Positions 1-8,412 of a stretch of 8,412 bases of DNA are shown here, one piece after another. Each line of letters begins with the position of its first letter. The first letter of the stretch is position 1. Under the pieces are notes generated by a model. It was not told the origin of the DNA and ran no database searches. It was given only the letters and a program-made list of their open reading frames with translations. The translations under genes were made by a program, and so were the position numbers. Source of the DNA: a virus (taxonomy: Duplodnaviria > Heunggongvirae > Uroviricota > Caudoviricetes); the IMG/VR virus record IMGVR_UViG_2690316148_000008; one strand, 5' to 3'.

Positions 1-31
1 TGGTAGTGTCCGCTATTGCCAGTACACCTCA
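1..31. repeat. Left arm of 31-bp terminal inverted repeat (partner 8382-8412)
   Basis: tggtagtgtccgctattgccagtacacctca is the exact reverse complement of the last 31 bases of the window; identity stops immediately beyond. Confidence 0.9.
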
Positions 32-116
32 GGGTATAAGGGGTTATGGCCACCGGACTACCAAACGGCTGCCAGCCCTCTTTCAGTTTATGTGTCAGCT
101 TTTCCGCAAGATCTGA
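1..116 (+). CDS. Short ORF fragment beginning at the window edge (ATG completed by one base outside the window); first 10 codons identical to the N-terminus of the right-edge ORF, then diverges; stop TGA at 114-116
   Basis: Manual translation in frame 3 gives (M)VVSAIASTPQGIRGYGHRTTKRLPALFQFMCQLFRKI*; bases 1-31 are the exact reverse complement of 8382-8412. Likely a recombination or assembly remnant rather than a functional gene. Confidence 0.25.
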   Translation, partial: VVSAIASTPQGIRGYGHRTTKRLPALFQFMCQLFRKI

Positions 117-351
117 CGGCGGCGCCGCCCTGACAACATCATAGTGTTTAAATGCCATGGTTCTTTCCACCATCTGAAAAATAATTCTTTAAAATACCTG
201 ACATGTAATACAGAAAAAACACAAAACCATACCTTAAATAAAAACCTGATTATCAAGCAGATATGCATGGATAAACTACAAGACGAGATATAAACCACCC
301 TGCATTTAAATAAACAATAAACAACATCAGAAAAATAATTCTGCTCTATGG

Positions 352-380
352 TTTACATTCAAAAATATCATTTATACTTT
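352..380 (+). promoter_or_regulatory. Candidate sigma70 promoter for the 111-aa ORF (TTTACA at 352-357, 17-nt spacer, TACTTT at 375-380)
   Basis: Hexamer match by eye in AT-rich DNA upstream of ORF 419-754; SD-like AAGGA at 408-412, 6 nt before the ATG. AT-rich sequence yields many promoter-like hexamers, so this is weak. Confidence 0.3.
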
Positions 381-418
381 TCAGAACATCACCAGCAAGG
401 CATAAACAAGGAAACTAA

Positions 419-754
419 ATGAAGTGGATTGTGATTGATACAGTTATCCAGCCATCATGCGGAATATCTTTTTCAGTCATATGGAGTAAAATAAAATTAA
501 TAATCTGGTATCAATCGGATGCTTTCTTACCTCCTGAAAGTATATTTACACTGACTCACACAGGCATCATGCTCAATAACAAAGTGCTACCTGTAACCAT
601 TTACAACGTAGTACCATTCAATAAAACATTCTGGAATTTAATCAAAAACAGCCAGGAATGCCCTACAAATACAGATAACGTATTGAATGAATGCTTTAAT
701 AACCGTTGCACTCTGCAAATATGTCCTTATGGACTAAAACAACAAAGTCCATAA
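419..754 (+). CDS. Hypothetical 111-aa protein in a low-GC island; five Cys, three in the C-terminal 30 residues; no obvious signal peptide; no family recognised
   Basis: Open frame of 111 codons in very AT-rich DNA, where stop codons are frequent by chance; AAGGA Shine-Dalgarno 6 nt upstream; perfect 9-bp hairpin 35 nt downstream; convergent with the phage late operon. Confidence 0.5.
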
Positions 755-788
755 GGAGTTTACTCACATCTGACAAAATCAATATAAA

Positions 789-810
789 CAGCCCCTCCGG
801 AGAGGGGCTG
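789..810. terminator. Perfect 9-bp stem / 4-nt loop hairpin (cagcccctc-cgga-gaggggctg); on the minus strand it is followed by a U-rich tract, on the plus strand it follows the 111-aa ORF
   Basis: Inverted repeat read directly; complement of 781-788 gives UUUAUAUU after the stem on the minus strand. Possibly a bidirectional terminator between convergent units. Confidence 0.5.
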
Positions 811-1005
811 GAGAGTGGCGCTATGTGCCATTGCATGGTGCCGGGTGCCTCCCGGTGAATTCAGTACCAGCACCTGAATCCGCGATTATCCCATATACCT
901 ACTCGCTGATTGCCCCTCCGCACAGGGGGATTCACCATGCCAGTTTCTTTTAACAAACTCCCCGCAAAACAGACAACTGTCAACCGTCTGAATTGTGAGA
1001 CATTT

Positions 1006-1031
1006 AAAAAAAAGGCCCGCAAAAGCGAGCC
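1006..1031 (-). terminator. Rho-independent terminator downstream of the tRNA cluster
   Basis: Minus strand reads GGCUCGC-UUUU-GCGGGCC followed by 8 U (A-run 1006-1013 on plus); stem 1014-1031 with one mismatch; 15 nt beyond the 3' end of the last tRNA. Confidence 0.6.
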
Positions 1032-1045
1032 AGGGAAAATAAGTG

Positions 1046-1122
1046 TGGCGCGTTGTACTGGATTCGAACCAGTGACCGATTGCTTAGAAGGCAATTGCTC
1101 TGTCCGGCTGAGCTAACAACGC
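1046..1122 (-). tRNA. argO: tRNA-Arg (anticodon UCU), 77 nt, encoded CCA
   Basis: Manual cloverleaf: acceptor GCGTTGT/ACAACGC, D-stem GCTC/GAGC, anticodon stem ATTGC/GCAAT with loop CTTCTAA, T-arm ACTGG-TTCGAAT-CCAGT, discriminator G, CCA. Symbol follows the ileZ-argN-argO arrangement recalled from lambdoid/Stx phages. Confidence 0.85.
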
Positions 1123-1135
1123 ATGATGCAGATAA

Positions 1136-1212
1136 TGGACCGCCATCGGGGACTTGAACCCCGCGCAGCCAGCTTCGAAGGCTGGCGCTCTTTCCTGATG
1201 AGCTAATGGCGG
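1136..1212 (-). tRNA. argN: tRNA-Arg (anticodon UCG), 77 nt, encoded CCA
   Basis: Manual cloverleaf: acceptor CCGCCAT/ATGGCGG (unusual C1-G72), D-stem GCTC/GAGC, anticodon stem CCAGC/GCTGG with loop CTTCGAA, T-arm CGGGG-TTCAAGT-CCCCG. Exact 5' end is uncertain by 1 nt. Confidence 0.75.
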
Positions 1213-1219
1213 TATGTGA

Positions 1220-1295
1220 TGGTGGCCCTTGCTGGATTTGAACCAGCGACCTGGCGATTATGAGTCGCTCGCTCTCACCACTGAGCTAAAGGGCC
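1220..1295 (-). tRNA. ileZ: tRNA-Ile2-like (anticodon CAU, presumably lysidine-modified to read AUA; Met cannot be excluded from sequence alone), 76 nt
   Basis: Manual cloverleaf: acceptor GGCCCTT/AAGGGCC, D-arm GCTC-AGTGGTGA-GAGC, anticodon loop CTCATAA, T-arm GCTGG-TTCAAAT-CCAGC, discriminator A, CCA; overall resembles my recollection of E. coli ileX. Confidence 0.8.
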
Positions 1296-1335
1296 GGGAG
1301 CCGCATAATAACGACGCGTAATTAATTCTTCAATA

Positions 1336-2394
1336 TCATCCGTTCTGGCTGACTAAATCCTGTACTTCCCGAACCGTCTGCTCAAAACGTTCAGTCTCCA
1401 GCTCAACGCCAATTGCACGACGCCCGAGCGCCAGTGCCGCTTTCACTGTCGAACCCAACCCCATGAAAAAATCTGCAATCAGGTCACCCGGACGACTGCT
1501 AGCGCTGATTATCTGCTGCAGCATTTCTGCCGGTTTTTCGCACGGATGTTTCCCGGGATAGAACTGCACCGGTTTATGCGTCCACACATCGGTATACGGC
1601 ACCTGCACCGTCACGCCAAAATACCGCCGCAGATGTTTATATTCACTCAGCAGCTCCGCATACTGCCGGTTCAGTGAGGTATACGTATCCACCAGCTGGT
1701 GGTGGAGCTTTTCCAGTTCACCACGCCGATGCTTCTCTTCTGCCACCCGGGCAAACAGCGCCTGTAATTTCAGATAATCGCTTTCATTCGGCAACTGCCA
1801 CTGACCGGCACTGAACCAGTGCGACACCATGTTTTTCTTTCCTGTGGCATCTGCAATCTGTTTTGCCGTTATCCCCAGGGCAGCTCGCGCATCACGAAAG
1901 TAAGAAATCAGCGGGGCCATCACATGCTGTTTCAGTGCACTGCCCTTCGCCGCATACCCGGCATCTTTCGGACGATACGGCCCCTGATAATGTTCCGCGA
2001 ACAGAATGCGCTCTGTGGCGGGGAAATACGCCCGCAGGCTTTCCTTGTTGCATCCGTTCCAGCGTCCGGACGGCTTCGCCCAGATAATATGGTTCAGCAC
2101 ACTGAAGCGTTCACGCATCATGATTTCGATATCAGATGCCAGGCGATGACCACAGAACAGGTAAAGACTTCCGGCAGGTTTCAGCACCCGCCAGAACTGC
2201 GCCAGACACTGGTCCAGCCACTTCAGGTAATCATCGTCGCCCTTCCACTGGTTATCCCAGCCCTCAGGCTTCACTTTAAAGTACGGCGGGTCCGTGACTA
2301 TCAGGTCAACAGAATTTTCGGGTAACGACCGGATAAATTCCAGGCAGTCGGCGTTGATTAACTCACAACTGGATATTTTTACAGTATTAAGCAT
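1336..2394 (-). CDS. Orphan DNA methyltransferase, beta-class N6-adenine/N4-cytosine type (motif IV DPPY near the N-terminus, motif I FxGxG near the C-terminus)
   Basis: 352-aa ORF; VTDPPY early and FFMGLGST late is the motif order of beta-class amino-MTases (N6_N4_Mtase family); no restriction endonuclease partner is visible in the window. Confidence 0.85.
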   Translation of the reverse strand: MLNTVKISSCELINADCLEFIRSLPENSVDLIVTDPPYFKVKPEGWDNQWKGDDDYLKWLDQCLAQFWRVLKPAGSLYLFCGHRLASDIEIMMRERFSVLNHIIWAKPSGRWNGCNKESLRAYFPATERILFAEHYQGPYRPKDAGYAAKGSALKQHVMAPLISYFRDARAALGITAKQIADATGKKNMVSHWFSAGQWQLPNESDYLKLQALFARVAEEKHRRGELEKLHHQLVDTYTSLNRQYAELLSEYKHLRRYFGVTVQVPYTDVWTHKPVQFYPGKHPCEKPAEMLQQIISASSRPGDLIADFFMGLGSTVKAALALGRRAIGVELETERFEQTVREVQDLVSQNG

Positions 2395-2966: not shown

Positions 2967-3623
2967 TTACCTAGTTACCTTTTTTAACTGCCGCTCAGCC
3001 CATGCTTCTTCAATATCAAACCGGGTCACCAGCGCATCATAAAATTTCTTAACTGTTTTTTCCCATGACGCGCGTGTTATCTGGTTTGTCACCTCGCATA
3101 TAGCATTAAATGCCTCCGTTGATGGTAGTCTTTCATAGCCACGACCACCACAACGCTGGCAGTCTCTGATAACAGGCATACCACGTTTTACCGACTCTTC
3201 ACGATGAATGGCGACACCACGCCCACGGCAATCCTTACAGGCGGTGGAAACCTCACCCTTTCCGCCACACTCCGGACAGGCAACTTTTACCACCTCTCTG
3301 ACTTTTTTCCATTCTTCCCAGTAAGACGGATACACACCTTTCGTACACTTTGCCCATACCGGCGGCTTACCATCCGGATACTGGACCTTGTTTGTAAAAA
3401 CTACGCTTTCAATAAATTTTTCCCCATAGCAACAAGGGCACTGCTTTTTACTCGCTGCGCTGCGGGCATAATCCTCAAAAGCGTACGAAGCCATAATGCG
3501 CATCACTACCGGTTTTATTTCTGCCGGAAGTTTTCTCAACGCCGCCACACGATCGCACCGACTGAGTGCATAATCTGCCAGTAATTCTGTTGCCCGCGCC
3601 CTGTCATTCATACTGATGCCCAT
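2967..3623 (-). CDS. Q: Antitermination protein Q, lambda-Q family, copy 1: carries the true C-terminus; the frame stays open upstream to the N at 3650, so it is 5'-truncated at the junction
   Basis: 218-aa ORF with CPCC...CPECGG...CKDCRGRG...CQRCGGRG zinc-ribbon motifs and a C-terminus (YDALV...VTR) resembling lambda Q from memory; followed by a pR'-like promoter. Confidence 0.75.
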   Translation of the reverse strand: MGISMNDRARATELLADYALSRCDRVAALRKLPAEIKPVVMRIMASYAFEDYARSAASKKQCPCCYGEKFIESVVFTNKVQYPDGKPPVWAKCTKGVYPSYWEEWKKVREVVKVACPECGGKGEVSTACKDCRGRGVAIHREESVKRGMPVIRDCQRCGGRGYERLPSTEAFNAICEVTNQITRASWEKTVKKFYDALVTRFDIEEAWAERQLKKVTR

Positions 3624-4257
3624 TTTCCCCAGGAACGCAGAAAACCCCANAATTTCTTAACTGTTTTTTCCCATGACGCGCGTGTTATCTGGTTTGTCAC
3701 CTCGCATATAGCATTAAATGCCTCCGTTGATGGTAGTCTTTCATAGCCACGACCACCACAACGCTGGCAGTCTCTGATAACAGGCATACCACGTTTTACC
3801 GACTCTTCACGATGAATGGCGACACCACGCCCACGGCAATCCTTACAGGCGGTGGAAACCTCACCCTTTCCGCCACACTCCGGACAGGCAACTTTTACCA
3901 CCTCCCTGACTTTTTTCCATTCTTCCCAGTAAGACGGATACACACCTTTCGTACACTTTGCCCATACCGGCGGCTTACCATCCGGATACTGGATCTTGTT
4001 TGTAAAAACCTCGCTTTCAATAAATTTTTTTCCGTGACAGCAGGGGCACTGTTTTTTGCTCGCCGCGCTACGGGCATAATCTTCAAACGCATACGAAGCC
4101 ATAATACGCATCACTGCCGGTTTTATTTCTGCCGGGAGTTTTCTTAACGCCGCCACGCGATCACACCGACTGAGTGCATATTCTGTCAGCAATTCTGTTG
4201 CCCGCTCTCTGTCATTCATACTAATGCCCATTTTCCCAAGGAACGCAGAAACCCCCA
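3043..4257. repeat. Two diverged direct copies of a ~607-bp Q segment (3043-3649 and 3651-4257) joined at a single N (3650)
   Basis: Manual alignment: the two units are near-identical over roughly the first 300 bp (about 1 difference seen) and clearly more divergent over the rest, with substitutions and 1-nt indels. Confidence 0.85.
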
Positions 4258-4396: not shown

Positions 4397-4767
4397 TTTT
4401 TGACCTGCTCTTCATGCATTATGGGGTAAATCTTCACCCCCAGACGTCCACCAGATACTGGCTGACCACGAACGATATTGATTTCATCAAACTGCTCATC
4501 GTCCATTAACACTCCCGCATGTGTCAGTGCATCCAGTGGTGCTTTCAGGATATTGTCCAGGTCACGACGGCGCTTATCCGGTGGCTCTGCAATAATCTTT
4601 ATCGCCAGTCTTCCGGACAGGCTTAATTTCAGTCGCTGCTGACGGACAATAAGCGCCACATCCCGGCGATAACGCTCACCGGCTTTTGATACAAAATATG
4701 TGTTGTCACGACGTCGCCAGTAAGTATTCACCGTCGGCGGATAAGGTAAAATAAACTCATGGCGCAT
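4393..4767 (-). CDS. rusA: Crossover junction endodeoxyribonuclease RusA (Holliday junction resolvase)
   Basis: 124-aa ORF with RusA-like pattern LPYPPTVNTYWRRR...RRRDLDN...SGGR; stop overlaps the Q start (ATGA); start overlaps the stop of the upstream 85-aa ORF. Confidence 0.85.
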   Translation of the reverse strand: MRHEFILPYPPTVNTYWRRRDNTYFVSKAGERYRRDVALIVRQQRLKLSLSGRLAIKIIAEPPDKRRRDLDNILKAPLDALTHAGVLMDDEQFDEINIVRGQPVSGGRLGVKIYPIMHEEQVKK

Positions 4768-5076: not shown

Positions 5077-5143
5077 NNNNNNNNNNNNNNNNNNNNNNNN
5101 NNNNNNNNNNNNNNNNNNNNNNNNNNNNNNNNNNNNNNNNNNN
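5077..5143. other. Assembly gap (67 N)
   Basis: Run of n characters; separates the 5' UTR of the 85-aa ORF from a truncated second rusA copy. Confidence 0.95.
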
Positions 5144-5306
5144 TTCCGGACAGGCTTAATTTCAGCCGCTGCTGGCGAACAATAAGCGCCACTGCCCGGC
5201 GATAACGCTCCCCGGCTTTTGATACAAAATATGTGCTGCCACGACGACGCCAGTAAGTGTTCACCGTCGGCGGGTAAGGTAAAACAAATTCTATGCGCTC
5301 GGTCAT
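5144..5306 (-). pseudogene. rusA: 5' fragment (about 54 codons) of a second, diverged rusA copy, truncated by the N gap
   Basis: Encodes MTERIEFVLPYPPTVNTYWRRRGSTYFVSKAGERYRRAVALIVRQQRLKLSLSG; nucleotide sequence clearly similar to 4610-4767 (roughly 90% by eye); start lies 1 nt after the DUF968 stop. Confidence 0.7.
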
Positions 5307-7191: not shown

Positions 7192-7347
7192 TTACTCCTC
7201 AGGTTCGTAAGCTGTGAAGACAGCGACCTCCGTCTGGCCGGTTCGAATTCGTACCTCGCAGAGGTCTTTCCTCGTTACCAGTGCCGTCACTATGACGGTT
7301 AAACAGATGACGATCAGGGCGATTAACATCGCCTTTTGCTGCTTCAT
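7192..7347 (-). CDS. hokD: Hok/Gef-family membrane toxin (51 aa), HokD/RelF-like; the open frame extends in-frame upstream to an ATG at 7404 (70 aa), which may be a mok-like initiation region
   Basis: MKQQKAMLIALIVICLTVIVTALVTRKDLCEVRIRTGQTEVAVFTAYEPEE matches my recollection of E. coli HokD and the Hok consensus (CLT...TRK.LCE.R); AAGGAG SD 9 nt upstream of the ATG at 7347. Confidence 0.85.
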   Translation of the reverse strand: MKQQKAMLIALIVICLTVIVTALVTRKDLCEVRIRTGQTEVAVFTAYEPEE

Positions 7348-7516
7348 AGCCTGCTTCTCCTTGCCTTTCGGCACGTAAGAGGCTAACCTAGATTTGCCGT
7401 TCATAGATTGAGCCTCAGATTAATGTTAAGCGTCTTGCCGGACGCGTAATGTTAACTGGGGCTTTTCTCTATCTGCCTTTTGGTGTTCATGCCTGAGACA
7501 GATAGCCTCAAGCACC

Positions 7517-7551
7517 CGCTGCAATTCTACTTAACTCTCCTTTTCCCGCAA
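7517..7551 (-). promoter_or_regulatory. Candidate hok promoter (-35 TTGCGG at 7546-7551, 16-nt spacer, -10 TAGAAT at 7524-7529), predicted start near 7517 giving a ~170-nt leader
   Basis: Hexamers read on the minus strand; predicted 5' end coincides with a 12-nt element (7506-7517) complementary to the 3' UTR (7130-7142). Confidence 0.5.
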
Positions 7552-8157: not shown

Positions 8158-8412
8158 TTAACCCGCAGTGCTTTCAACTGATGAGGGGAACAAAATCTTT
8201 TCATCAAACCCTGCATTCATATCATGAACAGCAACACACCAATCCATCGACNNNNNNNNNNNNNNNNNNNTCGACGAACGATTATCAAGAGCCTCCATGA
8301 TTTCATCCATGCGGCGTAGGTCATACAGGTAAATGCTTTTATCGCCAATGGTGTAAAAGCCAATTTTTTTCGGTGATGGATGAGGTGTACTGGCAATAGC
8401 GGACACTACCAT
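8158..8412 (-). CDS. Hypothetical protein (84 codons), start ATG at the window edge (may extend beyond); interrupted by a 19-N gap at 8252-8270
   Basis: Open frame MVVSAIASTPHPSPKKIGFYTIGDKSIYLYDLRRMDEIMEALDNRSS...; stop TAA at 8158-8160 overlaps the SD of the next ORF; the first 31 nt are repeated inverted at the left window edge. Confidence 0.4.
   Translation of the reverse strand: MVVSAIASTPHPSPKKIGFYTIGDKSIYLYDLRRMDEIMEALDNRSSXXXXXXXSMDWCVAVHDMNAGFDEKILFPSSVESTAG
8382..8412. repeat. Right arm of 31-bp terminal inverted repeat (partner 1-31)
   Basis: Exact reverse complement of bases 1-31. Confidence 0.9.

Follow-up and report, generated by a model that had tools for sequence, protein, structure and literature searches.

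The closest described relative of the gene studied here is iraL, described in 2014 in uropathogenic E. coli CFT073 as a paralogue of iraM, with a published protein identity of 58.9% (PMC4045071). [quoted passage not shown] Each of IraL and RssB pulls down the other on purification, and the iraL promoter was assigned to sigma-70 (PMC4045071). [quoted passage not shown] The iraL mRNA is increased by 1.6 log2 at 37 °C compared with 23 °C (PMC12890032), and IraL is increased in a fur mutant (PMC7157518).

IraM of K-12 (YcgW) is an anti-adaptor of Mg2+ starvation whose structure with RssB is available (PDB 8TWD). In the crystal, the IraM barrel covers the alpha4-beta5-alpha5 face of the RssB receiver domain (PMC10844676). 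Residues 79-107 were cut from the crystallized protein, this tail being termed less conserved, flexible, and proteolytically unstable, and IraM alone is insoluble (PMC10844676). A third point of comparison is PmrD (4HN7, 2JSO), which protects phospho-PmrA and shares with IraL a small β-barrel-plus-helix fold and a receiver domain as its partner. For genome position, the reference is the stx2AB moron of phage 933W, an accessory cassette in which the operon is followed by the STnc100 sRNA. STnc100 has been detected by RT-qPCR in STEC vesicles (PMC12370729).

Here we analyzed a stretch of 8,412 nucleotides from a virus record (IMGVR_UViG_2690316148_000008), referred to as the window. The ORF at 419-754 is almost certainly iraL, an accessory gene with its own promoter that lambdoid prophages of E. 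coli and Shigella carry. It is a gene already known, real and functional, and not a new one.

The AT-rich island and its prophage surroundings

The features of the window on which the comparison draws are listed by position.

1-158, minus strand: 5′ part of a DUF1737/nanS-p-type esterase gene, start codon ATG at 158-156 (Pfam PF08410, E = 9e-16)
160-789, no strand assigned: AT-rich iraL island (moron cassette), 630 bp, 32.2% GC, with edges from BLAST
352-378, plus strand: iraL promoter of the sigma-70 type, read from the sequence, with -35 TTTACA at 352-357, a 15-nt spacer, and -10 TATACT at 373-378
386-418, plus strand: iraL transcription start site (TSS) and 33-nt 5′ UTR, from a 5′-RACE match, with Shine-Dalgarno (SD) AAGGA at 408-412
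419-754, plus strand: iraL coding sequence, 111 aa and TAA, an RssB anti-adaptor of the IraM/IraL family
724-757, plus strand: hairpin spanning the last iraL codons and stop, perfect 12-bp stem and 10-nt loop
780-969, minus strand: STnc100-family prophage sRNA gene (Rfam RF02076), convergent with iraL
789-810, minus strand: STnc100 intrinsic terminator, 9-bp G+C-rich stem and 4-nt loop (terminator scan; Rfam terminal stem)
1014-1031, minus strand: terminator-like hairpin with T8 just downstream of tRNA-Arg (terminator scan; 933W annotation)
1046-1295, minus strand: tRNA cluster of tRNA-Ile2 (CAT, ileZ-type), tRNA-Arg(TCG), and tRNA-Arg(TCT) (ARAGORN, Rfam)
1336-2394, minus strand: N6/N4 DNA methyltransferase between Q and the tRNAs (PF01555)
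7192-7404, minus strand: Hok/Gef ORF of a type I toxin-antitoxin system (Pfam PF01848)
7342-7517, minus strand: sok antisense RNA (Rfam RF01794, 112 bits)

The window reads against phage transcription, with the tRNAs, DNA methylase, Q, RusA, DUF968, and hok/sok all on the minus strand. RefSeq names the CAT-anticodon tRNA tRNA-Ile, and the hok/sok pair at 7192-7517 is ordinary for such a prophage region. Sliding GC content across the whole window is 29-35% over ~160-790 and 48-58% on either side. The island averages 32.2%, compared with 52.8% and 52.7% in its flanks (1-159 and 790-1045) and 50.3% in the rest of the window. A preliminary description had noted an AT-rich stretch of ~650 bp downstream of the tRNAs. 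Such a stretch is indeed present, at 630 bp and sharply bounded, but it does not follow the tRNAs immediately, as 256 bp of normal GC content (790-1045) intervenes.

The edges of the island were set by BLAST. The backbone common to the Stx-type phages phi296, 933W, and Nil3 stops at 159 and resumes at 790, and the interior gave no BLAST match to these three phages, which places the cassette at 160-789. Among complete E. coli genomes (n = 5426, cut-off at least 90% identity), 1446 (27%) carry the island in one to three copies each, always at 90% identity or more, and in 1419 of the 1446 the identity is at least 95%. It is also carried by four deposited phage records. The ORF is kept in related prophages, for example in CFT073, SW070919, and TUM10008, and the island moves as one unit. 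Small ORFs in and around it, at 98-298 (minus), 144-290 (plus), 699-836 (minus), 706-855 (plus), 825-950 (plus), and 864-1094 (minus), have no PHROG match. On this evidence, the idea that the island holds the remains of a gene in another frame or on the opposite strand was rejected. The proposal of a moron-type accessory gene holds up: the cassette has its own mapped TSS, 32% GC against ~52%, and is missing from phi296, 933W, and Nil3, which share its flanks, while the gene occupies the intergenic region from the tRNAs to the lysis genes of a lambdoid prophage and faces against late transcription.

The island had also been proposed to occupy the site at which Stx phages carry stxAB. BLAST against 933W pairs window positions 1005-1400 with 3412-3016 (tRNAs and terminator), 832-1002 with 4926-4745 (just after stx2B), and 51-159 with the start of the esterase. 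The order in 933W is argO, terminator, stx2A, stx2B, ~490 bp, and the nanS-p esterase, and the hairpin at 1014-1031 corresponds to the 933W “terminator upstream of the stx genes”. This mapping puts the stx2AB insertion at window ~1003-1005, upstream of STnc100, in agreement with the published position of STnc100 75 nt downstream of the stx2 operon/stx2B (PMC12370729; bioRxiv 10.64898/2026.05.13.724894). In the window the stx slot is empty and the iraL island (160-789) lies on the other side of STnc100, beside the start of DUF1737/nanS-p. Replacement of stx by iraL at the identical site is therefore rejected by the 933W mapping, and the proposed site gives way to an adjacent slot with STnc100 in between.

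Both cassettes are accessory insertions into one and the same phage backbone, in its tRNA-to-nanS-p intergenic region. They differ in orientation and context: stx2AB is co-directional with late transcription and upstream of STnc100, while iraL points the other way, under a constitutive promoter of its own, and sits downstream of STnc100. Compared with the Stx phages, STnc100 here matches over the full model and in the terminal stem, but it is not preceded by an stx operon, and the iraL island directly adjoins its terminator. As read from these alignments, the iraL and stx slots are two neighbors in one hot-spot, on either side of STnc100. In CFT073 the stx slot (22554-23300 of the compared locus) holds an insert of ~750 bp with a 43-aa DUF3927 ORF, so the tRNA-to-nanS-p spacer holds at least two independent cargo slots flanking STnc100.

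The potB lambdoid prophage of CFT073 has the arrangement Q, IS200, tRNA-Ile/Arg/Arg, the DUF3927 ORF, iraL (on the opposite strand), DUF1737, and holin. The window shares with it the IraL protein, the coding sequence, the mapped TSS sequence, and the place and orientation of iraL between the Ile/Arg/Arg tRNAs and DUF1737/holin; the two differ by four upstream SNPs, and CFT073 has in addition the DUF3927 insert at the stx slot and IS200 in the methylase position. The order Q, tRNA-Ile/Arg/Arg, iraL, DUF1737, and holin also occurs in SW070919 and TUM10008, with or without the methylase. DUF1737/nanS-p is the first late gene past the island, and in TUM10008 and 933W a full-length SASA esterase is found there. 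The spacer that holds the methylase in the window is occupied by IS200 in CFT073 and by nothing in SW070919, which makes it a further variable cargo site.

Elsewhere in the window, the genes for the Q antiterminator and RusA are duplicated in tandem: 3043-3342 equals 3651-3950 (100%), and 4611-4765 resembles 5144-5298 (90%). Runs of N at 3650, 5077-5143, and 8252-8270 flank the duplicated Q and RusA. TUM10008, a complete genome with the same arrangement, has single copies of both. The second copies thus have the appearance of an artefact, produced when paralogues from different prophages were mixed during scaffolding or assembly.

Identity and structure of the ORF product

The ORF at 419-754 is the sole long one in the island and runs counter to the tRNAs and phage late genes. 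An ATG-initiated ORF of at least 111 aa arises in 5 of 5000 shuffles of the island, and the earlier impressions of a frame improbable by chance and of a convincing opposite-strand gene were both correct. Its product matches CFT073 IraL (WP_000871291.1, c1429, C_RS06710) at 111 of 111 residues, and the coding DNA is identical. It scores 162 bits against the NCBIfam model NF007393, “anti-adapter protein IraM” (cut-off 121), with residues 1-110 aligned to profile positions 1-113 of 114, and it matches the sequence of PDB 8TWD, an IraM fragment of residues 1-78, with E = 9e-32. Identity to K-12 IraM is 62% overall, near the published value of 58.9%, with 51 of 78 residues in the RssB-binding domain and 15 of 29 in the tail. 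A local Pfam scan with E up to 10 returned no family for the product, which is uninformative beside the strong NCBIfam and PDB matches.

Under the definition of Hryckowian et al. (2014, PMC4045071), members of the iraL allele group share at least 95% of nucleotides with the CFT073 gene across the entire coding sequence and at least 96% in the promoter/upstream region, and carry the mapped mRNA 5′-end sequence ahead of the ATG. The values here are 100% and 98.5%, with 31 of 32 bases of the RACE sequence, compared with only 70.6% for the K-12 iraM coding sequence. By every criterion that can be tested on the sequence, the feature is an ordinary, common member of the iraL allele group. K-12 IraM shares with it NF007393, the length class, and the four cysteines of the tail. 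DNA homology to K-12 iraM is confined to the coding sequence, with unrelated flanks and promoter, and flanks shared between the two genes were thus rejected. IraL differs further from K-12 IraM by four additional C-terminal residues (QQSP). K-12 iraM, placed “on e14” in the literature, lies just outside the annotated e14 end, beyond the icdC pseudogene (3414-4004 of the compared locus).

The product had been described as belonging to no recognizable family and as uncharacterized moron cargo, with a role in anti-defence, in regulation, or as a small toxin-like protein. Such cargo would be in keeping with a moron hot-spot close to the stx slot, and phage-centred resources leave the protein unnamed: the PHROGs match is phrog_4407 (E = 3e-73), listed with “unknown function”. 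Against this, the identical protein binds RssB and stabilizes sigma-S (PMC4045071), and its N-terminal domain is homologous to IraM in the crystallized IraM-RssB complex. No signal peptide was seen, as the preliminary description had also noted, nor was any toxin homology. Of the suggested roles, that of a regulator is supported and those of anti-defence or toxin are not. The matches to CFT073 IraL, NF007393, and 8TWD remove the claim of an unrecognizable family, and uncharacterized cargo, by now refuted as an account of what the protein primarily does, has next to no probability. RefSeq labels the identical ORF in many genomes “anti-adapter protein IraM”, not IraL. The missed recognition of iraL is understandable, because Pfam is empty, PHROGs gives “unknown function”, and RefSeq says IraM.

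An AF2 model built from 15 homologs predicts a β-barrel and helix over residues 1-76, with seven strands to residue 66 followed by a helix at 69-76. Confidence is moderate, with a mean pLDDT of 60 and values below 50 in a disordered tail. Foldseek with this model returns 8twd_A first (E = 5.5e-7, TMt 0.67), followed by PmrD 4HN7 and 2JSO (E ~1e-2, probability 1.00), and the IraM structure paper likewise describes a PmrD resemblance (PMC10844676). The precomputed database labels of relatives include PF11183 (PmrD), and IraM, like PmrD, raises the net phosphorylation of its partner (PMC10844676). These points would suit a PmrD-like connector acting on another response regulator such as PmrA, instead of or besides RssB. 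However, PmrD is only 15% identical, has another partner, and is without the four-Cys tail in the aligned region, while binding of IraL to RssB has been shown directly (PMC4045071) and the RssB-interface residues are conserved. IraL retains 10 of the 14 IraM-RssB interface residues (clusters I-III, PMC10844676), cluster I in full, and has conservative replacements at the other four (T13S, L75I, H63N, and I64V). We consider action on a regulator other than RssB very improbable, and retain RssB as the partner of IraL. By homology, the IraL barrel would occupy the same face of the RssB receiver as that of IraM.

The tail is the less familiar part of the protein. IraL has cysteines at residues 14, 81, 92, 97, and 102; the preliminary description was right to count five, but four rather than three of them cluster near the C-terminus. 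C81, C92, C97, and C102 are invariant among 16 Escherichia-type relatives, while C14 varies. In a profile search reduced to 52 representatives (50%-identity clusters), each tail cysteine is kept in 44-49, and the exceptions look truncated or frameshifted. The IraM/IraL tail thus has the nearly invariant motif C-P-x-N-x7-C-x4/5-C-x4-C-P-[YF]-G (IraL residues 81-105, window 659-733). A profile of the tail alone found no match among PDB sequences with E up to 10, and no discussion of the tail cysteines was found in the IraM/IraL literature searched. One possibility is that the tail binds Zn or responds to redox state, and in this way controls the stability or activity of the anti-adaptor. This proposal, combined secondarily with iraL/STnc100 interference and a Q-driven shut-off of iraL (see below), is a tentative one to which we give well under an even chance.

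Expression signals and the convergent sRNA

The published CFT073 5′-RACE sequence (32 nt) matches window 386-417 at 31 of 32 bases, and none of 200 shuffles gave a match. The TSS is accordingly placed 7 nt after TATACT, and the AAGGA is 6 nt ahead of the iraL ATG. The Shine-Dalgarno and plausible promoter of the preliminary description are both borne out, the promoter sitting at the experimentally mapped iraL TSS. A consensus promoter scan did not flag it, because its spacer is 15 nt. The promoters that the scan did flag, at 311-339 and 470-497, were rejected as lying away from the mapped TSS. A PhoP box, as expected of an IraM-like gene, was also rejected: an 11/12 match at 307-323 on the minus strand has counterparts in 97 of 2000 dinucleotide shuffles.

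Upstream of iraL (160-418), four of 259 nt differ from CFT073, at 171, 228, 385, and 416 (98.5% identity). The change at 385 (G to A) is at position -1 and that at 416 (C to T) is between the SD and the ATG; these two could alter iraL output. Low-GC xenogeneic DNA is often silenced, and the island has 32% GC. Together with the two SNPs near the TSS and start codon, this would fit a gene that is iraL by sequence but a silent or irrelevant passenger here, through H-NS-type silencing, the SNPs, or an unresponsive host RssB/RpoS. The thermoregulation of iraL mRNA also fits some low-temperature repression (PMC12890032). Yet in CFT073 and S. sonnei an identical coding sequence, behind a near-identical promoter, shows log-phase activity, and it also functions after transfer to K-12 (PMC4045071), and the identity of at least 95% in 1419 of 1446 carrier genomes argues that selection has favored the cassette. 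A silent copy is thus unlikely, if less so than the other alternatives above, and we infer that iraL here would be expressed at the CFT073 level despite the -1 and 5′-UTR SNPs.

Downstream, iraL converges with STnc100. The RF02076 match runs from 969 to 780 on the minus strand at 133.6 bits (gathering threshold 47) and covers the full model (1-206), and the two published STnc_100 qPCR primers each have a perfect match, at 920-939 (minus) and 847-866 (plus) (PMC12370729). A “hypothetical protein” pseudogene annotated by RefSeq at 825-950 overlaps STnc100 and is probably spurious. The perfect 9-bp hairpin reported after the ORF stop does exist: the stem at 789-810 starts 35 nt past the iraL stop. 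It is, however, the terminator of the convergent STnc100 (RF02076), with its T-rich tail on the minus strand; on the plus strand the stem is followed by GAGAGTGGCG, which is without a U-tract. The STnc100 terminator may also end iraL transcripts.

A second inverted repeat, at 724-757, covers the last four iraL codons (QQSP, the residues missing in K-12 IraM) and the stop. The RNA fold of 700-830 has an MFE of -47.4 kcal/mol (z = -5.4). The hairpin is possibly a 3′-end or stability element of the iraL mRNA. Convergent iraL and STnc100, sharing one hairpin, could be coupled via transcriptional interference.

Proposed action and significance

In a lysogen, iraL would be transcribed from its own sigma-70 promoter (TSS 386), against phage late transcription. 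The IraM/PmrD-like β-barrel of IraL (residues 1-76) is predicted to bind RssB, a response-regulator-like adaptor, which would then no longer deliver sigma-S (RpoS) to ClpXP. Sigma-S would be longer-lived and build up in exponential growth, so that some of the general stress regulon is switched on in unstressed cells. The outcome would be lysogenic conversion through a rewired host proteolysis pathway. After induction, Q-dependent late transcription would presumably run antisense through iraL, and could turn it off.

As a discovery the locus adds little, with iraL described in 2014 and the ORF already labeled in RefSeq with the family name IraM. It does illustrate how what looks like a textbook “orphan moron” can prove to regulate host proteolysis, while phage-centred resources still say unknown function (PHROG 4407). 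The cassette now has exact boundaries and a defined place with respect to the stx slot and STnc100. A conserved four-Cys tail, omitted from structural work so far, is also flagged; if it acts as proposed above, it would make sigma-S proteolysis responsive to metal or oxidative signals. Stress tolerance and niche are linked to the basal RpoS level, and since prophage-borne iraL is present in about one quarter of complete E. coli genomes, lysogeny by these phages is a common way for strains to diverge in that level.
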